64,000 nt of DNA from the NCBI RefSeq assembly GCF_024298765.1, contig NZ_CP101210.1; one strand, 5' to 3'. Below, piece after piece: positions 2,963 to 39,127 of this stretch (position 1 is its first letter; every line of letters starts with the position of its first letter). The translations under genes were made by a program, and so were the position numbers. The notes below the pieces were generated by a model, which saw nothing but the letters and a program-made list of their open reading frames with translations, was not told the DNA's origin and made no database searches. This DNA is from Escherichia coli. Lineage in GTDB: Bacteria; Pseudomonadota; Gammaproteobacteria; Enterobacterales; Enterobacteriaceae.

Positions 2963-3230
2963 CTTTTGCAATATCGTTGCGTAGCTGTTCACGTCTTGCC
3001 TCTCCGTCCTGATTGCGTTGCTGATTTTCCACGCGGAGTTGCGCCAGCACCTGCTGCATATCCTGTACCCCGGCGCTAATGATATTCAGGGTGTCGGCGG
3101 TACGTTTCAGGGTGCTGGCCTGCGCTTCGTTTCTGGCGTTCTCCCGGCCCAGCGACCATGACAGACGCATGGATGTTCCCCATGCGGCAATCAGAAGGAA
3201 AGCGACACCCAGCGTGGGCCAGAGCTTCAT
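2823..3230 (-). CDS. i-spanin (LysB/Rz-like), start at internal Met49 of the track ORF
   Basis: ATG at 3230 overlaps the endolysin stop (ATGA); N-terminal TM (LWPTLGVAFLLIAAW) followed by a charged coiled-coil-like region. Confidence 0.6.
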   Translation of the reverse strand: MKLWPTLGVAFLLIAAWGTSMRLSWSLGRENARNEAQASTLKRTADTLNIISAGVQDMQQVLAQLRVENQQRNQDGEARREQLRNDIAKDECAHALPDARFTDRLRRHAERATASAVSPAYTADADHTGNASPLP

Positions 3231-3619
3231 GCCGGATAGACTCCGTGTGGTAACTGAAAATGCGGTCCGTCTTTCAGGGTCTTCCAGTCGCCGCCCCATT
3301 CCACCGGAATATTCAGCTCCCGGCTGGCCTGTCTGAATGCTGCTGCGATTTTTTCGTACAGCGGCCATTCCCATGACACCTGGCTGCCGATATAAGCCAC
3401 AACATCCACGGCATGTCCCGTAAGGTGGCGGCTGTTCATGGTCTGGCTCTTACCTGTGGCCACAAGTTGCTTCTGGCGGTAACGGCTGCGCAACCCTTCG
3501 GTGATACCAAAATCCACTTCCGAAATTTCCAGTGCCCGTCGGGTCACTTTCACCAGATCAGGATTTACGCCCTGCAAATTCTTTTCGCTCCGGCTGCTGA
3601 ATTTAAATGTGTTGCTCAT
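3227..3619 (-). CDS. endolysin, peptidase M15-like (L-Ala-D-Glu / D-Ala-D-Ala peptidase type)
   Basis: 130 aa with SRHLTGHAVDV zinc-peptidase-like motif; sits between holin and spanins. Confidence 0.7.
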   Translation of the reverse strand: MSNTFKFSSRSEKNLQGVNPDLVKVTRRALEISEVDFGITEGLRSRYRQKQLVATGKSQTMNSRHLTGHAVDVVAYIGSQVSWEWPLYEKIAAAFRQASRELNIPVEWGGDWKTLKDGPHFQLPHGVYPA

Positions 3620-3939
3620 TCGTCCTTCTCCTTCCCCCTGCGATTAAAGGCCGCAATAACCTTGTCGCGTGCTTTCTCTGCGCCCATAAAACCGATTGAT
3701 GCGCCGATAAACGTCACGGCATCTTCAGGAAACCCGAAGAAGCGCAACGACCCGGCCACGGCCATGGCAAGAACGCCGCACGCCAGCGATCCCGTTACGG
3801 TCTGAACCAGTGTTCGTCCGTCATAAAGACTCATCAGCGCGGAAATGCTGACTGCCGCGCCTACTGCATACACCGTTGGCAGGTGGTCAAAGAGCCACGC
3901 AATAACCTGCTCTGTGATCCCTGTTTGAATGGTGCTCAC
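3616..3939 (-). CDS. holin (GTG start inferred)
   Basis: GTG at 3939 preceded by GGGAG, 2 nt after X stop; about 108 aa with hydrophobic TM segments and a charged C-terminus; overlaps endolysin start. Confidence 0.55.
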   Translation of the reverse strand: MSTIQTGITEQVIAWLFDHLPTVYAVGAAVSISALMSLYDGRTLVQTVTGSLACGVLAMAVAGSLRFFGFPEDAVTFIGASIGFMGAEKARDKVIAAFNRRGKEKDE

Positions 3940-3941
3940 TG

Positions 3942-4148
3942 CTACTCCCCCCACAACTGAATCATTTCTCGTTTCTTCTTCTCCGGCTCCGGCATCTCCA
4001 CGTCCTGCCCGGCGTCCAGAAATACCTGCTGACAGAGTCCGGGGTTGGCATCCAGCACCTTTTCGGTGACGCCCTGCGTCGTGCCGTAGTACCGGAAACA
4101 GAGCGAATCCACGGTGTCGCCTTCCAGTGCCTTCACTTTCATCAGCAC
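3942..4148 (-). CDS. tail protein X (gpX-like)
   Basis: 68-aa ORF between L and the holin, P2 order L-X-Y. Confidence 0.75.
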   Translation of the reverse strand: MLMKVKALEGDTVDSLCFRYYGTTQGVTEKVLDANPGLCQQVFLDAGQDVEMPEPEKKKREMIQLWGE

Positions 4149-4645
4149 AACTCCGCAAAAATTCGCGGGCGGCGCAGAATGTCAGAGATGGCCCAGCTCA
4201 CATCGCGCCACAAATCCGATGTCTGTATATCCAGTGCGTCCGCCCGGCGGTCGCCCTTATCCGTTGTGTCCGCATCGCGGTAACGCTCCAGAATCAGGGC
4301 GCGTGTGGCGGTATAAACGGCATTGCGCCAGTGCCAGAGATTGACGCTTTCTCCGTTAATTACGGGTGCCGGAACATCGGCCAGCGTCTGATGGCCAGCC
4401 GCCTGCTGTTCCTGCTGCCATGCTTCCAGCTCGCGGGTAACGTGAGCCACCGCCCCGGTGGCGGTATGCAGCAGGCGGGAGGTGGTCACGCGCCCCGGCA
4501 GTCGTACCGCCAGACGCAGCTCACGCAGCACAATATCCGGCCAGAATGCACCCGCTGAAATACGGGTATCACCATCATCGGTATCGGTGATGTCGTCCTC
4601 TGCGGGTCCGGGGTTGGTTCTGGCAACCATACTCATGGGGTTCAC
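4142..4645 (-). CDS. head completion/stabilisation protein (gpL-like)
   Basis: 167-aa ORF following terminase small subunit M as in P2. Confidence 0.8.
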   Translation of the reverse strand: MNPMSMVARTNPGPAEDDITDTDDGDTRISAGAFWPDIVLRELRLAVRLPGRVTTSRLLHTATGAVAHVTRELEAWQQEQQAAGHQTLADVPAPVINGESVNLWHWRNAVYTATRALILERYRDADTTDKGDRRADALDIQTSDLWRDVSWAISDILRRPRIFAELC

Positions 4646-4737
4646 TCCTGAAAAAATCGGGCGGTGGGTGCGCGGTGTAAACGGTCACGGAGTCAAACCG
4701 GAACACCGCGCACGCCGCCCGCTGACGGGGTCAGTCG

Positions 4738-10872: not shown

Positions 10873-10899
10873 TTGTGCAAATTTGTGCACTATTGTGCA
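10873..10899 (+). promoter_or_regulatory. three direct TTGTGCA repeats at 10-bp spacing with a nearby TATAGT; candidate operator/promoter of the cargo operon
   Basis: TTGTGCA at about 10873, 10883 and 10893 (a fourth copy near 10801); TATAGT at about 10904; about 80 nt upstream of the cargo ATG. Confidence 0.35.
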
Positions 10900-10978
10900 T
10901 TTGTATAGTGAAAAAAATATAGCAGAAAGTATACTTAGCGCCTTGTGGGCTACGTTAACTTTGCAGGAACATTTGGAA

Positions 10979-12358
10979 ATGAAAAAAATCAATAAAGAAG
11001 ATTCTAAAAGAACCTTTTTACGTGGATGGTTGCGATTTCTTCGTAGCGTTGAGAGAGCTAAGAAAAAAAAGCCTGCGCAAGAGAAAAATGGTAGTCTTCG
11101 TTTTTCCGATGAAACAACTCCTGTCCAAAACCAAGTCGCTACGTTCATTGAAAATATATCGATTATAAAAGAGTATGACTCATCAATTCTTCGTCGTGAC
11201 GCAGAGAAGATATTAATACCTAAATATTTTGACTTATATGACAATCCAGAGAAATCTCTGCTATTTATTAGTGCAGCCACAAAATTAATTGCAAGAGGTA
11301 AATGGAAATCATATATTTTTGATTACAAGAAAAACAAAAAACACTGTCTTGGTCTTGAGTGTCTATTAGGTGTTGCTCTTACAGCAGCAAGGCAAAGTAA
11401 TATAAATTTCAAAGATACGATGATTCAGATTAATGGTATCTACCCTAAAGATGAACAGTATCTTGAAATTATCAGGGATGTCGGGCTTGTAAAAGAGATT
11501 AGTAATGCTGCACCAGGTAAAGTTCTGGACTCTACTGAAGCATCGAAAAAAGCGAATCCGAAGAAACGAATCTTCTCTGCTGATAGTATCGGAAAGGAGA
11601 ATGCTTCTGCCTTTGCCCATGACAGAAAAAATGTCACTGCTGAAAAATTTACCGCATACATAAACGAATGCTTAAATGATCATAATTTAAAACTTGTACA
11701 TGAGGCAGAAAAGCATTTAACTTCCTGCATGGGGGAACTCCTTGATAATGCGGAGCGGCATTGTGGGTTAGAGCAACGCCCACGCTGGTATTTGAGAGGT
11801 TTTGTTAATAATAACGTACGAAACCCCATATGTGAGTTGGCTGTTTTCAATTTTGGGAAAACTATCAGCGAAACTTTTGATAATTTACCTGAGGATCATT
11901 TTTCATTAAGTCAACAAGTTAATCCATACATAAATAAGCATATTAAGAAAAAGGGTATGTTTAAGGAAGGATTAACAACAGTAGCGGCCTTGCAAGGGCG
12001 GGTGAGTTGTAAAAACGAGAAAGAAACTGACAGTTCTGGCACCGGAACAATTGAATTATTGAAGTTATTTCAAGATATGCATGATAATCTTAAAAAAATG
12101 GGAAGAGATATTAAAGGTGGGATAAAAATGACTTTAATATCTGGTAGTACTCATATTAACTTTGATGGATCATATAAATTAAAGCAAAGGTTGGTTAATG
12201 ACGAGGAAAGTGACATTTTTACTTACCCTTTTAATGATGTAGGGCTTGAATCTGAACCGGATCGCAACTATCTTAAGCGTATGAAGGATGCTCGATTTCC
12301 TGGAGTTATGATCAATATTCGTTTTCCTCTACCAGAAAACGCCACCCAGCGAACTTGA
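10979..12358 (+). CDS. cargo gene 1: GHKL-type ATPase / anti-sigma-factor-kinase-like protein, 459 aa from ATG 10979
   Basis: N-box-like ELLDNAERHCG, possible degenerate G1 (FNFGKT) and G2 (SSGTGT) boxes; AT-rich; AGGAA 8 nt before ATG; the track start at 10883 is a TTG. Confidence 0.6.
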   Translation: MKKINKEDSKRTFLRGWLRFLRSVERAKKKKPAQEKNGSLRFSDETTPVQNQVATFIENISIIKEYDSSILRRDAEKILIPKYFDLYDNPEKSLLFISAATKLIARGKWKSYIFDYKKNKKHCLGLECLLGVALTAARQSNINFKDTMIQINGIYPKDEQYLEIIRDVGLVKEISNAAPGKVLDSTEASKKANPKKRIFSADSIGKENASAFAHDRKNVTAEKFTAYINECLNDHNLKLVHEAEKHLTSCMGELLDNAERHCGLEQRPRWYLRGFVNNNVRNPICELAVFNFGKTISETFDNLPEDHFSLSQQVNPYINKHIKKKGMFKEGLTTVAALQGRVSCKNEKETDSSGTGTIELLKLFQDMHDNLKKMGRDIKGGIKMTLISGSTHINFDGSYKLKQRLVNDEESDIFTYPFNDVGLESEPDRNYLKRMKDARFPGVMINIRFPLPENATQRT

Positions 12359-12368
12359 GGACAGGTAC

Positions 12369-12713
12369 ATGAAAATGGCTGACATCACCATAGATTTCAA
12401 TAAGTTAGTAAAAGATAGTAACAAGAAACTTTTTGCTGGACGTTCTAATGGGCGCCAGGCCTATGATTACTTTAATATAGGGAAATTTTGCACAACCAGT
12501 AATGATAGATTATATCTATTGATCCCCAAGGGAATTGTTGTATCAAGCTCATACTTTCTAGGTATGCTTGAAACGGTTTTGCCGAAATTTTCTTCGCCTA
12601 GCGAATTTTATAGTCGCACTGTACTTGATGGTCGTGAATATAAAGAAGGTATGCTTTCTGAATTAGATAGAGCTGTAAGGAGAGGCTTACATAAAAATGT
12701 TCCCTTCTTTTAA
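12369..12713 (+). CDS. cargo gene 2: small STAS-like (anti-sigma-factor-antagonist-like) protein, 114 aa
   Basis: GAGGA 8 nt before ATG, overlapping the stop of gene 1; segment LLIPKGIVVSSSYFLGMLETV recalls the SSSF-type STAS-like signature. Confidence 0.55.
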   Translation: MKMADITIDFNKLVKDSNKKLFAGRSNGRQAYDYFNIGKFCTTSNDRLYLLIPKGIVVSSSYFLGMLETVLPKFSSPSEFYSRTVLDGREYKEGMLSELDRAVRRGLHKNVPFF

Positions 12714-13506
12714 AAATATTTTTCAAATCAAAATGACAGCGCTGTCTGTCATTTTTTTTATATTCCCCGCAGCTTGCTCTGTGACAGATTTTTCCAATAA
12801 AGAAAACATTGAATGTAATGAGTCACTTTATCCAAACACGCCTTTTTATATTTCCGATTCAGGACTTAGTGGTATATCATCACCGTTTTTGTTATCCGGA
12901 AACCCGAATGATGGCTTGATGTTTTGTGAAAAGGCAAACGACACCTTTCATAAGTTATCTCTGGCAAGGGATAACAAAAAAGATTTATTTACTAATTATT
13001 TCAAAGATGTTCCAAATTCCTATGATATATATAATATTGTAAAGGTTCCGGAAAATGGTCCAGAGTGGATTTCTATTGGCATCTCTTTATTTGCTTTAGT
13101 TTCATCCTTTGTTATTCCTTGTGTTCAACATAGAAAAGAACGTAAAGAAGCTATTAATGAAGGGTATTGGGTAAGAGAAGTAATTATGCCTAAAATTAAT
13201 GGGTTGGCATTCGATGTTGTGCAAAGTTTTAAAAACTCCATGGCATTATCAGAAGAGGAGTTTCTTAGTGTATTCAGTAATACTCTTTTACCAAAACTAG
13301 GAGAGTTACGGGATTCATTATATTTGTTTAATAGTTTTCCAGAATTAAATGCAGATATTGAAAATCTAGAAAGTATTTGTGACTCCTTGGAGGAAGAAGT
13401 TTCCAATCATATAGACTCGCCTAATGAAATAAGAATTTCTGATATATCAATGTTTCATTCCAAATTAATACAGAAATTAATTTTACTTCATAAGAAGATA
13501 GGTTGA
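12697..13506 (+). CDS. cargo gene 3: membrane protein, candidate effector (N-terminal signal/anchor, one internal TM, acidic C-terminal domain)
   Basis: Overlaps gene 2 by 17 nt; hydrophobic N-terminus TALSVIFFIFPAAC and TM WISIGISLFALVSSFVIPCV; AT-rich. Confidence 0.6.
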   Translation: MFPSFKNIFQIKMTALSVIFFIFPAACSVTDFSNKENIECNESLYPNTPFYISDSGLSGISSPFLLSGNPNDGLMFCEKANDTFHKLSLARDNKKDLFTNYFKDVPNSYDIYNIVKVPENGPEWISIGISLFALVSSFVIPCVQHRKERKEAINEGYWVREVIMPKINGLAFDVVQSFKNSMALSEEEFLSVFSNTLLPKLGELRDSLYLFNSFPELNADIENLESICDSLEEEVSNHIDSPNEIRISDISMFHSKLIQKLILLHKKIG

Positions 13507-19263: not shown

Positions 19264-19914
19264 ATGGCCGTCAACTCAAACGGTTCAAACAATCGCGTTG
19301 CTGGGCGTGATTTTCACGAAAAGAATATTCAGATAGAGCGATATGATGGTTCTCATACCGTCAATATCGCAATCCCTTCGAATAATGATGATGACGCTCG
19401 CCCTTTGCTTAAGGCACAGCGTAAGGAGCTAAATAGCTTGGTTGCTGCTATTGCAGAAGCTAGCAATACTGAAGCGTTTATTATTTGGCAAAAAGTACAT
19501 GCGGAGATTGGTGTAGCTGGTATTGATGATATGACAATAAATCAATATAAAACAGCGGAGAGTTTTCTGCATGCAATGCTTGAGCGATGTAAAGATCATG
19601 ATGCCTGTAAGACTCTTGTAAGTTTATTACTACGTAACAGTGAAGACTGTGGACTTCGACAAAAACTTCTGCGGTATTGCCATATCAATTTCGGTACAGG
19701 ACGTTTAAACGATCTTACTCGTTCTCAGTTACAGTCTGCATTGTCGTGGTTAGAGCAACAATCGGTATCAAGCCACACAGAGAATTCGACCTTACCAGAA
19801 GTCCGCCTTCGTGCTTCAGAATTAATCCGATTTTATCCAAAAGAAATAATATTCTTTATCTGCGTAGGGGTTTTGGTAGGCGGAGCCATTTCTAGGATGT
19901 TTTTTAATTTGTAA
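19264..19914 (+). CDS. moron protein with C-terminal membrane anchor, unknown function
   Basis: 216 aa; GGGAGG 6 nt before ATG; AT-rich; C-terminal TM IIFFICVGVLVGGAI; lies between repressor and integrase. Confidence 0.55.
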   Translation: MAVNSNGSNNRVAGRDFHEKNIQIERYDGSHTVNIAIPSNNDDDARPLLKAQRKELNSLVAAIAEASNTEAFIIWQKVHAEIGVAGIDDMTINQYKTAESFLHAMLERCKDHDACKTLVSLLLRNSEDCGLRQKLLRYCHINFGTGRLNDLTRSQLQSALSWLEQQSVSSHTENSTLPEVRLRASELIRFYPKEIIFFICVGVLVGGAISRMFFNL

Positions 19915-19943
19915 TCTTACTTGAGCTAAATTGAGGCAATGAC

Positions 19944-20291
19944 ATGAAAGTAAAAAAGGTTCAACTATTAGTTGCTTTTTTATCTATGTTTTCTTTTTCC
20001 GCCGTCGCAATGCCTTTTAAAACTATTGAACGTGAGAGTTTCAATGGAGTATGGCCATTTAATACAGATGAGGTTCAATTGCAGTGTCTTGATGGTAATC
20101 CTTATGTGATGAATTTTGACGATAATAAGTTATATGCGCTTACAGGTTTGGCTCGAATAAAAGGTAAAACATTTGGTGCGTTACCGTTAGATAACAATAA
20201 TCCATTTTGGCTAGATAATGATGCCGCCCCTGGGTTAAAAAAGAATCTGGGGGACGTCACTAAGGCTGCATTTGATTTATGTGATAAGTAA
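19944..20291 (+). CDS. secreted/periplasmic moron protein, unknown function
   Basis: 115 aa with signal peptide MKVKKVQLLVAFLSMFSFSAVA and two cysteines; AT-rich. Confidence 0.55.
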   Translation: MKVKKVQLLVAFLSMFSFSAVAMPFKTIERESFNGVWPFNTDEVQLQCLDGNPYVMNFDDNKLYALTGLARIKGKTFGALPLDNNNPFWLDNDAAPGLKKNLGDVTKAAFDLCDK

Positions 20292-20296
20292 CAAAG

Positions 20297-21298
20297 ATGT
20301 CGGTTCGTAAGATTCCATCAGGTAAATGGCTTTGCGAATGTTATCCCTACGGAGCATCGGGAAAACGCATTCGTAAACAGTTTGCGACAAAAAGTGAGGC
20401 GCTCTCTTATGAGCGCCGTTTAATGAATAGTAGAGTTGGAGACGAGTTTCAAGATGGTTCTGGTCCTCGTCTTTCTGAGTTGATTGCTCGTTGGTTTGAG
20501 ATGTACGGCAAAACCTTGTCCTCTGGTGCAGAGCGCAAAGTCAAACTTGAGGCGATTTGTTCTAGGCTGGGAGATCCATTTGCTTCTCAGTTTGACAAAA
20601 ATATGTTTGCTACTTATCGGGAAAGAAGGCTATCAGGAGAATGGAATCCCAAGGGGAAGAAAAAACTTAGTGAAGCAACCGTTAATCGCGAGCAGTCATA
20701 TCTACATGCTGTTTTTGCCGAACTGAAGCGCCTTGGGGAGTGGTCTGGTGAAAACCCCCTGACTGGAATTCGCAAGTTTCGTGAGGAAGAAAAGGAGCTG
20801 GCGTTTCTGTATGTAGATGAGATTGAACGCCTTTTGATTGCGTGTGATGAGTCACGGAATAAAGATTTGGGGGTTGTTGTCCGTATTGGGCTTGCGACTG
20901 GTGCTCGGTGGAGTGAAGCAGAAGGATTAAAGCAATCTCAAGTACTGCCCGGTCGAATCACATTTGTTAAAACTAAAGGAAAGAAGAACCGCACTGTACC
21001 GATTTCACCTCAATTGCAGGCTATGCTTCCTAAAAAACGAGGAGCGCTATTTTCACCATGTTATGAGGCTTTTGACGCTGCAATTAAGAGAGCGAAGATA
21101 GAGCTCCCTGATGGGCAATTAACTCATGTGCTACGTCACACGTTTGCTAGTCATTTTATGATGCGGGGCGGAAATATTCTTGTGTTGCAAAAAATACTGG
21201 GGCATAGCGATATAAAAATGACTATGCGTTATGCGCATTTTGCTCCGGGTCATTTAGAGGCTGCTGTTGAATTAAACCCTTTTGACAATAGAGGGTAA
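20297..21298 (+). CDS. int: tyrosine-type site-specific integrase
   Basis: 333 aa; C-terminal HVLRHTFASH...ILGHSDIKMTMRYAH catalytic R-H-R-Y pattern; next to the att/tRNA fragment. Confidence 0.9.
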   Translation: MSVRKIPSGKWLCECYPYGASGKRIRKQFATKSEALSYERRLMNSRVGDEFQDGSGPRLSELIARWFEMYGKTLSSGAERKVKLEAICSRLGDPFASQFDKNMFATYRERRLSGEWNPKGKKKLSEATVNREQSYLHAVFAELKRLGEWSGENPLTGIRKFREEEKELAFLYVDEIERLLIACDESRNKDLGVVVRIGLATGARWSEAEGLKQSQVLPGRITFVKTKGKKNRTVPISPQLQAMLPKKRGALFSPCYEAFDAAIKRAKIELPDGQLTHVLRHTFASHFMMRGGNILVLQKILGHSDIKMTMRYAHFAPGHLEAAVELNPFDNRG

Positions 21299-21404: not shown

Positions 21405-21459
21405 TTTAAAATCCCTCGGCGTTCGCGCTGTGCGGGTTCAAGTCCCGCTCCGGGTACCA
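21405..21459 (+). other. prophage attachment-site core: 55-nt duplicate of the tRNA-Leu (leuZ-type, anticodon TAA) 3' end, not an intact tRNA
   Basis: TTTAAAATCCCTCGGCGTTCGCGCTGTGCGGGTTCAAGTCCCGCTCCGGGTACCA matches the remembered 3' portion of E. coli leuZ; the upstream 5' half does not fold as an acceptor stem. Confidence 0.7.
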
Positions 21460-27133: not shown

Positions 27134-28123
27134 ATGCACAAATTTACTAAAGGCCTGGCAGCCATTGGTCTGGCAGCCGTTATGTCACAATCCGCTATGG
27201 CGGAGAACCTGAAGCTCGGTTTCCTGGTGAAGCAACCGGAAGAGCCGTGGTTCCAGACCGAATGGAAGTTTGCCGATAAAGCCGGGAAAGATTTAGGGTT
27301 TGAAGTTATTAAGATTGCCGTGCCGGATGGCGAAAAAACATTGAACGCTATCGACAGCCTGGCTGCCAGTGGCGCGAAAGGTTTCGTTATTTGTACTCCG
27401 GACCCGAAACTCGGCTCTGCCATCGTGGCGAAAGCGCGTGGCTACGATATGAAAGTCATTGCCGTGGATGACCAGTTTGTTAACGCCAAAGGTAAGCCAA
27501 TGGATACCGTTCCGCTGGTGATGATGGCTGCGACCAAAATTGGCGAACGTCAGGGCCAGGAACTGTATAAAGAGATGCAGAAACGTGGCTGGGATGTCAA
27601 AGAAAGCGCGGTGATGGCGATTACCGCCAACGAACTGGATACCGCCCGCCGCCGTACAACGGGTTCTATGGACGCACTGAAAGCTGCAGGATTCCCGGAA
27701 AAACAAATTTATCAGGTACCTACCAAATCTAACGACATCCCGGGGGCATTTGACGCTGCCAACTCAATGCTGGTTCAACATCCGGAAGTTAAACATTGGC
27801 TGATCGTCGGTATGAACGACAGCACCGTGCTGGGCGGCGTACGCGCGACGGAAGGTCAGGGCTTTAAAGCGGCCGATATCATCGGTATCGGTATTAACGG
27901 TGTGGATGCGGTGAGCGAACTGTCTAAGGCACAGGCAACCGGCTTCTACGGTTCCCTGCTGCCAAGCCCGGACGTACATGGTTATAAGTCCAGCGAAATG
28001 CTTTACAACTGGGTAGCAAAAGACGTTGAACCGCCAAAATTTACCGAAGTTACCGACGTGGTGCTGATCACGCGTGACAACTTTAAAGAAGAACTGGAGA
28101 AAAAAGGTTTAGGCGGTAAGTAA
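27134..28123 (+). CDS. araF: L-arabinose ABC transporter periplasmic binding protein
   Basis: Starts MHKFTKGLAAIGLAAVMSQSAMA (signal peptide) at internal Met of the track ORF. Confidence 0.9.
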   Translation: MHKFTKGLAAIGLAAVMSQSAMAENLKLGFLVKQPEEPWFQTEWKFADKAGKDLGFEVIKIAVPDGEKTLNAIDSLAASGAKGFVICTPDPKLGSAIVAKARGYDMKVIAVDDQFVNAKGKPMDTVPLVMMAATKIGERQGQELYKEMQKRGWDVKESAVMAITANELDTARRRTTGSMDALKAAGFPEKQIYQVPTKSNDIPGAFDAANSMLVQHPEVKHWLIVGMNDSTVLGGVRATEGQGFKAADIIGIGINGVDAVSELSKAQATGFYGSLLPSPDVHGYKSSEMLYNWVAKDVEPPKFTEVTDVVLITRDNFKEELEKKGLGGK

Positions 28124-29721: not shown

Positions 29722-33074
<3,353 letters not shown>

Positions 33075-33080
33075 GAGCGG

Positions 33081-33509
33081 TTAATCTCCCGTAAGTGGAA
33101 CTAACAGCACATCGACCTCACTTGAGGCAATCACTCTTTTCGCCGAGCAGGATGCTCGCGAAAAGAAACTGTGATTGTGATTACCGCAAATCACCAAATC
33201 GAAATGATATTTGCGACAAACTTCCAGAATATGTTCGCTTAACTCACCGTAGGCAATAAACGTCTTGTCAACGGGATACCCCGCATCCTGAATTAACTTA
33301 TCAAGAAAGCTTTGCGTTTCTTCCTGCATCACGCTGCGTAAATCTTCAAGCATCGGCGCAGCTAATTGATTGTACATTTCCGGGTCGGAAGCGAGAGTAA
33401 TTAAACTGATGTGTCCCTTTACTGGCCTGGCGATAGATACCGCTTTTGCCAGCAGTTGCTGACTTTCCGGTGTAACCGCAACAGCGACAAGAATATTGCT
33501 ATAGCTCAT
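33081..33509 (-). CDS. uspC: universal stress protein C
   Basis: 142-aa Usp-family ORF convergent with otsA. Confidence 0.85.
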   Translation of the reverse strand: MSYSNILVAVAVTPESQQLLAKAVSIARPVKGHISLITLASDPEMYNQLAAPMLEDLRSVMQEETQSFLDKLIQDAGYPVDKTFIAYGELSEHILEVCRKYHFDLVICGNHNHSFFSRASCSAKRVIASSEVDVLLVPLTGD

Positions 33510-34289
33510 AACCTGTTCCTTATTCTGTGAACTTCAGGTGACATTAAAGCTTTACTCCTAATGGAGAAACGACGCAATCCCAACTCAGTCAAACAGGTAA
33601 ATATTAGCGTGATTATTAGTAAATACAATTAATCAATCACTCTCGGTGATCATATGATTTCAACTGTAATTATAAGAAAATAATGTACTGATTCTCCATA
33701 TTAAACAAGTGGTTAATATATGTAAAACATTTTATTAACATTAAGTTGATTGTTGCCTTTCTTTGTATTTAATTAGTTTGTTGTGCGGTAAGTGTCTGTT
33801 TAAAAATAGCTTATCTGGTATTGCATTAAAGCAATTATTTATAGCAGATGATTATTTACGGTGAGTTATTTTAACTGTGCGCAACATCCCATTTCTATTA
33901 TTCCTGTTTCATTTTTGCTTGCTAGCGTCGCGAAAAACTTTTTAACAGATTGAAATACACCCAAAACAAAAGTATGACTTATACATTTATGTTAAGTAAT
34001 TGAGCGTTTTGTGTGATCTGCATCACACATTATTGAAAATCGCAGCCCCCCTCCGTTGTATGTGCGTGTAGTGACGAGTAAAGTTGCGTCGATTTAGGAA
34101 AAATCTTAGATAAGTGTAAAGAACCCCTTCTATTTGTAAGGACTTATTAAATCCCACAAAGGGGCTCTGCCTATTGCAGCTTATCGCAACTATTCTAATG
34201 CTAATTATTTTTTACCGGGGCTTCCCGGCGACATCACGGGGTGCGGTGAGACCGCATAAAAATAAAGTTGGTTATTCTGGGTGGGAATA
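33510..34289 (+). promoter_or_regulatory. flhDC promoter and long 5' leader region
   Basis: About 780-bp AT-rich non-coding interval upstream of flhD; no insertion sequence present. Confidence 0.6.
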
Positions 34290-34640
34290 ATGCATACCTC
34301 CGAGTTGCTGAAACACATTTATGACATCAACTTGTCATATTTACTACTTGCACAGCGTCTGATTGTTCAGGACAAAGCGTCCGCTATGTTTCGTCTCGGC
34401 ATAAATGAAGAAATGGCGACAACGTTAGCGGCACTGACTCTTCCGCAAATGGTTAAGCTGGCAGAAACCAATCAACTGGTTTGTCACTTCCGTTTTGACA
34501 GTCACCAGACGATTACTCAGTTGACGCAAGATTCCCGCGTTGACGATCTCCAGCAAATTCATACCGGCATCATGCTCTCAACACGCTTGCTGAATGATGT
34601 TAATCAGCCTGAAGAAGCGCTGCGCAAGAAAAGGGCCTGA
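34290..34640 (+). CDS. flhD: flagellar master regulator FlhD
   Basis: Starts [24 protein letters not shown], 116 aa. Confidence 0.9.
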
Positions 34641-34642
34641 TC

Positions 34643-35221
34643 ATGAGTGAAAAAAGCATTGTTCAGGAAGCGCGGGATATTCAGCTGGCAATGGAATTGA
34701 TCACCCTGGGCGCTCGTTTGCAGATGCTGGAAAGCGAAACACAGTTAAGTCGCGGACGCCTGATAAAACTCTATAAAGAACTGCGCGGAAGCCCACCGCC
34801 GAAAGGCATGCTGCCATTCTCAACCGACTGGTTTATGACCTGGGAACAAAACGTTCATGCTTCGATGTTCTGTAACGCATGGCAGTTTTTACTGAAAACC
34901 GGTTTGTGTAATGGCGTCGATGCGGTGATCAAAGCCTACCGTTTATACCTTGAACAGTGCCCGCAAGCAGAAGAGGGACCGCTGCTGGCATTAACCCGTG
35001 CCTGGACATTGGTGCGGTTTGTTGAAAGTGGATTACTGCAACTTTCCAGCTGCAACTGCTGCGGCGGCAATTTTATTACCCACGCTCACCAGCCTGTTGG
35101 CAGCTTTGCCTGCAGCTTATGTCAGCCGCCATCCCGGGCAGTAAAAAGACGTAAACTTTCCCAGAATCCTGCCGATATTATCCCACAACTGCTGGATGAA
35201 CAGAGAGTACAGGCTGTTTAA
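34643..35221 (+). CDS. flhC: flagellar master regulator FlhC
   Basis: 192 aa with CNCCGG...CSLC zinc-binding cysteines. Confidence 0.9.
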
Positions 35222-35245
35222 CTGATACGGTGTGGCGAAACATTC

Positions 35246-35279
35246 CAGCAGCGGTAACGACGTACCGCTGCTTTTTTTT
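35246..35279 (+). terminator. rho-independent terminator after flhC
   Basis: CAGCAGCGG...CCGCTGC hairpin followed by a T8 run. Confidence 0.7.
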
Positions 35280-35347
35280 GCCCCTATCGCGTGTTAACGC
35301 CTGACGACTGAACATCCTGTCATGGTCAACAGTGGAAGGATGATGTC

Positions 35348-36231
35348 GTGCTTATCTTATTAGGTTACCTGGTTGTTCTCGGTACAGTTTTCGGCGGTTA
35401 TTTGATGACCGGTGGAAGCCTTGGAGCACTCTATCAACCCGCTGAACTGGTGATTATTGCCGGTGCAGGGATTGGGTCGTTTATCGTCGGCAATAATGGC
35501 AAAGCGATTAAAGGCACGCTGAAGGCGCTGCCGTTGCTGTTTCGTCGCTCCAAATACACCAAAGCAATGTATATGGATCTGCTGGCTCTGCTTTATCGGT
35601 TGATGGCGAAATCGCGGCAGATGGGGATGTTTTCGCTGGAACGTGATATTGAAAATCCCCGTGAGAGCGAGATCTTCGCCAGCTACCCACGCATCCTTGC
35701 GGATAGCGTCATGCTTGAATTTATCGTCGATTATCTGCGCCTGATTATCAGCGGTCACATGAACACCTTCGAAATCGAAGCTCTGATGGATGAAGAGATT
35801 GAGACGCACGAAAGCGAGGCAGAAGTCCCGGCGAACAGTCTGGCGCTGGTCGGTGACTCACTTCCGGCGTTTGGTATTGTTGCGGCTGTAATGGGGGTCG
35901 TTCACGCGTTAGGTTCAGCCGATCGTCCTGCCGCCGAGCTGGGGGCGCTTATCGCACATGCGATGGTGGGGACTTTCCTCGGTATTTTATTGGCTTACGG
36001 ATTTATTTCCCCATTAGCGAGTGTTTTACGTCAGAAAAGCGCCGAAACCAGCAAAATGATGCAGTGCGTCAAAGTCACACTGCTATCTAATCTGAACGGT
36101 TACGCACCGCCTATCGCCGTTGAGTTTGGTCGCAAAACGCTCTATTCCAGCGAACGTCCGTCGTTTATTGAACTGGAAGAGCATGTGCGTGCGGTGAAAA
36201 ATCCGCAACAACAGACGACAACCGAGGAAGC

Positions 36232-36235: not shown

Positions 36236-39127
<2,892 letters not shown>

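Follow-up and report, generated by a model that had tools for sequence, protein, structure and literature searches.

An insertion-free flhDC regulatory region in Escherichia coli that is not the K-12 allele

The 780 bp that separate uspC from flhD in the DNA studied here, a stretch of 64,000 nucleotides hereafter called the window, are almost certainly the native and uninterrupted intergenic region of a natural, non-K-12 strain of Escherichia coli. The locus is the flhDC regulatory region, no insertion is present in it, its landmarks and the adjoining FlhD and FlhC proteins are intact, and alleles that are interrupted at this place are rare among complete E. coli genomes. Insertions in this region have consequences in the laboratory: K-12 stocks of poor motility become more motile, and express flhDC more strongly, when IS1, IS3 or IS5 inserts between about -96 and -476 (PMC5493358, PMC5100188). 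The original prediction had described the region upstream of flhD as a known target of insertion sequences, one of which is carried here by some K-12 stocks. Both statements hold, as such insertions are documented in the literature and the MG1655 reference genome carries IS1H (768 bp, insA5/insB5; b1893/b1894) at 1978503-1979270, between flhD and uspC. The allele in the window, to judge from its sequence, is a natural one, yet it is not that of K-12.

The locus and its landmarks

By open-reading-frame calls and by annotation transfer alike, the gap between uspC and flhD measures exactly 780 bp (33510-34289 of the window). Its GC content of 35% stands against 50.7% for the 64-kb window, and the composition within the gap is uneven, at 30% from -581 to -100 and 42% in the promoter-proximal part. 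The position, size and AT-richness that had been attributed to the region upstream of flhD are thus accurate. Further, its predicted identity as the flhDC regulatory region is supported by gene context and homology. The genes are arranged in the order otsB-otsA (plus strand), uspC (minus strand), the gap, and then flhD, flhC, motA and motB (plus strand). That is, uspC and flhD diverge within an otsBA-uspC-flhDC-motAB locus, and the interval is homologous over its full length to reference E. coli genomes. The elements of the flhDC class I regulatory region are also in place: a CRP site at -71.5, a sigma-70 promoter and a leader of about 198 nt, the start of which is assigned by homology. The features to which we refer below are these, those without a strand being marked as such:

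33081-33509, minus strand: uspC (universal stress protein C), a 142-aa open reading frame divergent from flhDC
33510-34289, no strand: uspC-flhD intergenic region, the flhDC class I regulatory region, uninterrupted (780 bp, 35% GC)
33984-33991 (-107 to -100), no strand: empty MG1655 IS1H site CATTTATG, an 8-mer that flanks IS1H on both sides in MG1655
33992-33995 (-99 to -96), no strand: IS5 hotspot TTAA, unoccupied, with the sequence running straight through it
34012-34027, no strand: cAMP-CRP site TGTGATCTGCATCACA, centred at -71.5, read from the sequence
34056-34084, plus strand: flhD sigma-70 promoter, by transfer of the K-12 start site
34091-34289, plus strand: flhD 5' untranslated leader, 199 nt (198 nt in K-12), with its putative start at G 34091
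34091-34311, minus strand: antisense RNA AsflhD, by homology with K-12 b4839
34095-34108 (+5 to +18), no strand: RcsAB-box-like sequence TAGGAAAAATCTTA, read from the sequence, which holds the first GGA motif of the leader
34109-34185, plus strand: predicted 5' stem-loop of the leader, from an RNAalifold consensus of 8 alleles
34290-34640, plus strand: flhD coding sequence, intact (116 aa, ATG at 34290)
34643-35221, plus strand: flhC coding sequence, intact (192 aa)

The coding sequences that border the interval are close to those of K-12. The identity of uspC to its K-12 counterpart is 98.6% at the nucleotide level. FlhD is the same protein as in K-12, with two nucleotide differences in its gene that are both synonymous; FlhC is likewise unchanged, and all eight differences from K-12 in flhD and flhC together are synonymous.

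The coordinates of the transcribed part of the interval derive from K-12. In that strain, AsflhD is annotated at 1978176-1978395, and its far end, 1978395, lies at -198 from the flhD ATG, which corresponds to G 34091 here, given a 1-bp indel. By this analogy, we infer that flhD transcription starts at G 34091. A start at this position is consistent with the location of the IS5 target TTAA at -99 to -96 and with the CRP site being centred at -71.5. The latter value fits the class I CRP site of flhDC as reportedly published by Soutourina et al. (1999). AsflhD itself starts 22 nt inside flhD and acts in antisense (PMC9600491). The first part of flhD (34290-34358), the AsflhD promoter region included, is identical to K-12.

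The closest relatives of this allele are found in many E. coli genomes, among them those of the isolates APEC O78:H4 E14033, strain 104 and 2009C-3133, in which all 780 bp are 100% identical and the flanking genes and their orientation are alike. In the first of these, whose intergenic region is thus identical, the boundaries of the gap are also annotated identically. From 21405 to 64000, a length of 42,596 bp, the window is colinear with E14033 and shows only 2 mismatches to it (99.995% identity). These sole differences fall at 27153, near the start of araF, and at 36586, in motB; the latter gene remains a full-length open reading frame despite the change.

Absence of an insertion sequence

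One comparison is with MG1655 itself. When IS1H (768 bp) and one 8-bp duplication, CATTTATG, are taken out of that genome, what remains aligns end to end with the interval, with 32 substitutions and one 1-bp indel. The alignment to K-12 that had been proposed as a check therefore gives a colinear result once the element and its duplication are set aside. Six more diverse alleles, those of O157:H7, UTI89, BL21 and three others, are also colinear with the interval and differ in length by the same 1-bp indel only.

The sites at which elements are known to insert are empty. The 8-mer CATTTATG is present as a single copy at 33984-33991, which identifies this position as an unoccupied IS1 site. The adjacent TTAA, which spans -99 to -96 relative to the start of flhD transcription, is the site of recurrent IS5 insertion (PMC5100188), and it too is single. 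No duplicated target flanks an insertion in the interval, and no element of at least 768 bp with a transposase reading frame and terminal inverted repeats, as would characterize an IS-activated flhDC allele, is present.

Direct searches agree. Neither the real IS1 of MG1655 nor a real, 1195-bp IS5 (taken from strain EV36) gave more than chance matches of at most 25 nt by blastn against the whole window, and none of these were in the interval. A fuzzy search for the ends of IS1 and IS5 with up to three mismatches found none in the interval. Families other than IS1 and IS5 are excluded by the colinearity described above and by the absence of coding capacity: no open reading frame in the interval exceeds 44 aa. 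The small reading frames (23-44 aa) lack a credible Pfam match, and we rejected them as genes. An Rfam scan of 32900-35500 at E <= 1 yielded no match. Inverted repeats in the interval are imperfect, at 73-91% complementarity, and are at chance level, with 2 pairs matching at 16 or more of 22 positions compared to 3-12 in shuffled sequence. Direct repeats amount to two short, two-copy families that flank nothing. These results sustain the original prediction in two respects: the region is non-coding sequence without interruption by a transposase reading frame (longest frame 44 aa, no Pfam match), and terminal inverted repeats are missing from it, the IS1 and IS5 ends being absent and other inverted repeats being no more than expected by chance. 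The findings that had been named as contrary evidence, IS terminal repeats or target-site duplications, are both absent from the interval.

The interval thus differs in a well-defined manner from the known IS-bearing alleles. The flhDC region of MG1655 is the same locus with the same promoter architecture and identical FlhD and FlhC proteins, but it has an IS1 about 100 bp upstream of the start with a duplication of CATTTATG, where the present allele has an empty site. The IS5-activated alleles of K-12 (in MC1000, motile variants of BW25113 and Fnr- derivatives of MG1655) share the same region and the same TTAA target; in them, the 1195-bp IS5 occupies TTAA or another site as far upstream as -476 (PMC5100188), and no IS5 is found here. 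Certain phylogroup A strains from wastewater have IS30/ISEc33 in the same intergenic region, which is also not the case here (PMC5007776). Two further alleles, from genomes that match the interval only in part, are the products of IS-mediated deletions that start in this region. In EV36 mutant 5a, IS5 (3487-4681 of the locus) lies at the TTAA hotspot, exactly after ...CATTTATGTTAA, and is fused to a TTAA inside flhC, such that flhD and the start of flhC are lost. In strain E05, IS1 (3222-3990 of the locus) is followed by a deletion in which flhDC, motAB, cheAW and part of tar are lost.

How common is the insertion-free state? A match to the interval exists in 5,421 of the 5,426 complete genomes of E. 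coli; in 5,271 of them a single place contains at least 80% of the interval, and 58 of 60 genomes in an evenly spaced sample have single-piece, full-length matches. With a query of 780 bp, however, pieces up to 890 bp apart are joined, and the search was therefore repeated with two 390-bp halves, which insertions of the size of IS1 do split. For the distal half, 43 genomes have matches in two places, and at least 80% of it is found in one place in 5,370 of 5,417 genomes. For the proximal half, the corresponding numbers are 138 genomes and 5,271 of 5,401, and 25 genomes are without a match. The region is thus uninterrupted in about 96-97% of the 5,426 complete genomes, with an interruption or a deletion in roughly 3-4%. 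As the rows of matches reveal, many of the interrupted or deleted genomes are laboratory derivatives of K-12. Further, the IS30 insertion associated with wastewater was present in none of 845 human and animal isolates (PMC5007776). The insertion-free condition is the default of the species; it is ordinary and already known. It is K-12 that is atypical, and in two ways, as it carries IS1 and also has an imperfect CRP half-site. The present allele is of limited practical use, as a clean natural reference in which the targets of IS1 and IS5 are empty.

Regulation, allelic variation and alternative explanations

The original prediction went on to suggest wild-type regulation of the flagellar master operon, which is reasonable as a reading of the nucleotide sequence. 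As we envisage it, transcription would start about 199 nt before the flhD ATG, from a weak sigma-70 promoter that depends on cAMP-CRP bound at -71.5. H-NS, LrhA, OmpR, RcsAB, Fur, IHF, MatA and YjjQ would repress this promoter by binding to the early leader and to the AT-rich DNA upstream, and the long leader would be targeted by CsrA, several Hfq-dependent small RNAs and the antisense RNA AsflhD. The protein- and RNA-binding events in this scheme are those expected from the K-12 literature, and the level of expression is likewise a projection by analogy. The sequence TAGGAAAAATCTTA at +5 to +18 is invariant in all eight alleles compared, and we take it to be the RcsAB box of flhDC; Francez-Charlot et al. 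(2003) are reportedly the source for that box. RcsAB is named among the proteins that bind the flhDC regulatory region (PMC5493358), and the long flhD leader is a target of CsrA and of several small RNAs (PMC3634460, PMC3750693). The genes for the trans-acting regulators (lrhA, hns, rcsB and others) are located outside the window.

With no IS between the promoter and the silencing DNA that lies upstream of it, expression of flhDC should follow its native, condition-dependent control, and the partly derepressed state of K-12 stocks that bear IS1 or IS5 would not be expected. Given a native control region together with intact FlhD and FlhC, motility in this strain should be regulated, as opposed to constitutively raised.

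The promoter is composed of a -35 hexamer TTGTAT (34056-34061), a 17-bp spacer and a -10 hexamer TAAAGT (34079-34084), the latter reading TACAGT in K-12. Only 7 of the 12 hexamer positions agree with the consensus, which explains why our consensus scan did not list it. Such weak hexamers fit a promoter that depends on an activator. Within the interval, the scan for consensus promoters and terminators returned three minus-strand promoter-like sites, where 3.5 would be expected by chance, and no terminators. The best of the promoter matches, TGGAGA-18-TATAAT at 33698-33669 on the minus strand, agrees with the consensus at 10 of 12 positions and points toward uspC. This candidate could serve uspC, and it overlaps two polymorphic positions (33698 and 33699).

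The K-12 CRP half-site is TCACG, as opposed to TCACA in the window, where the A is at 34027. This A is found in 7 of 8 compared alleles. Of 4,928 genomes, 407 have the exact K-12 48-mer around the CRP site and 4,513 have a version that differs from it at one position. The perfect CRP palindrome is hence the majority allele of the species, and K-12 is the odd one out. The A at 34081 in the -10 hexamer, by comparison, is a minority variant, shared with only one close allele of the seven compared.

Among eight alleles, variable sites in the interval are concentrated in two places, the AT-rich sequence of its distal part (33570-33750) and positions +33 to +83 of the leader; very little variation is seen in the core promoter and in the 3' part of the leader. 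The second of these clusters of natural polymorphism (34123-34173) falls in the apical part of the predicted 5' stem-loop, and 12 variable columns lie within 34110-34169. One pair in this stem changes from C-G to A-U between alleles, with a C.U mismatch at the same place in three of the eight. The predicted folding energy of the leader is -60.1 kcal/mol here compared to -53.6 kcal/mol in K-12, with the stem of the present allele being the strongest. Folds of single leader sequences are not significantly better than those of shuffled sequences (z = -1.6 and -0.9). Because of this, and because only one compensatory pair is seen in eight alleles, the structure of the leader must be regarded as predicted only.

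Substitutions inside the CRP half-site, the -10 hexamer and the leader stem mean that the quantitative behavior of this allele may differ from that of K-12. A quantitative regulatory difference is possible but unsupported. In the least improbable of the alternatives to the reading given above, the interval would be free of insertions and nonetheless unlike the K-12 wild type, with point changes of the lineage having shifted the set point or the responsiveness of flhDC. The changes in question would be the -10 sequence TAAAGT in place of TACAGT, the perfect CRP palindrome, the stronger apical stem of the leader and a G at +160. We consider this alternative, and the involvement of these changes in it, unlikely. 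In its favor, some of the 32 substitutions (with the 1 indel) that distinguish the interval from K-12 are in the CRP site, the -10 hexamer and the leader, and only 145 of 5,421 genomes (about 3%) reach an identity of at least 99% across the entire interval; the more stable predicted fold and the one compensatory pair in the leader stem also point in this direction. Against it, the perfect CRP site is the majority allele, both variants of the -10 hexamer match the consensus at 4 of 6 positions, and the folding energies are not significantly better than those of shuffles. The amount of change also does not call for a special explanation. Identity to K-12 is 95.8% over the interval compared to 98.2-99.4% for the flanking genes, but by a rough estimate the divergence of 4.1% is of the same order as that at synonymous sites in those genes. 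It is thus not in excess, and mostly neutral drift is enough to account for it.

It is somewhat less likely still that this minority allele, by way of its -10 A, perfect CRP palindrome and stronger apical stem, sets a heritably different level of flhDC, or a different responsiveness to small RNAs or CsrA, in an APEC O78:H4-like lineage. If that were true, point variation instead of IS insertion would tune motility in nature.

We return to the preferred reading, that of a native interval under native control, to weigh two objections to its being free of insertions. The first is that all of the compared strains might have in common a degenerate mobile element or a miniature inverted-repeat element, to which a test of colinearity would be blind. 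The imperfect inverted repeats in the interval, for instance the 22-nt arms at 33756-33777 and 34142-34163 (73% complementary), could be seen as its remnants. Such repeats are no more common than in shuffled sequence, however, and these arms enclose the functional promoter and the CRP site. No flanking target duplications, similarity to IS1 or IS5, Rfam family or coding capacity accompany them, and the interval and its halves are found in a median of one place per genome, with a maximum of two. A hidden element is thus very improbable.

The other objection, equally improbable in our estimation, is that the continuity of the interval is an artefact of assembly, a real IS having been collapsed or skipped: copies of IS elements are the classic points at which short-read assemblies break or collapse, but the junction-free sequence is the same, base for base, as that of many independently finished genomes, the surrounding 42.6 kb are 99.995% identical to a complete genome, and a collapsed IS usually breaks a contig and does not result in seamless closure without a duplicated target.

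The neighboring prophage and its probable cargo genes

Another part of the window, a prophage with uncharacterized cargo genes (1-21404), holds more interest than the flhDC region. This segment belongs to a P2-like (P88-like, Xuanwuvirus) prophage and includes genes for a terminase, a portal protein, a gpA replication protein, a repressor and an integrase. APEC E14033 is without a prophage at the matching position, and its colinearity with the window starts at 21405. The break is inside the tRNA-Leu of a Gly-Cys-Leu tRNA cluster, and ARAGORN detected no tRNA within the window; 21405-21459 is therefore only a 3' fragment of the tRNA, i.e., a copy of the attachment site. The integrase gene (20297-21298) adjoins this fragment.

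Between the portal gene and gpA are three plus-strand open reading frames, at 10883-12358, 12369-12713 and 12697-13506. The first encodes 491 aa when read from a TTG codon (probably about 459 aa in reality), and the others encode 114 and 269 aa. In the related phage 520873, this slot is instead filled by ParM and partition genes. None of the three had a match in Pfam, PADLOC or NCBIfam. Only the first two have PHROG matches, both to families of unknown function: phrog_3364 (E = 3e-7) and, marginally, phrog_37359 (E = 0.006). The first belongs to a small family of "hypothetical proteins" of about 459 aa with a patchy distribution over Enterobacterales and Aeromonas. Its conserved residues, E253..N257..H261 and a glycine-rich G354-x-G356-T357, suggest a GHKL-type ATP-binding domain. 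The structural model of this protein is a confident one (pLDDT 82), and a Foldseek search of the PDB with it returned SpoIIAB and CheA-P4 as the best matches, which are weak (E >= 0.1). The reading frames at 10883-13506 look like the uncharacterized cargo of a prophage hotspot and are candidate anti-phage or accessory genes.

Two small prophage reading frames also lie on the plus strand at 19264-20291, between a repressor-like HTH gene and the integrase. One, of 216 aa, matches phrog_5825, whose function is unknown, and has a weak similarity to the N-terminus of Flk that is far below the cutoff of that family. The other, of 115 aa, is a DUF2511 protein.
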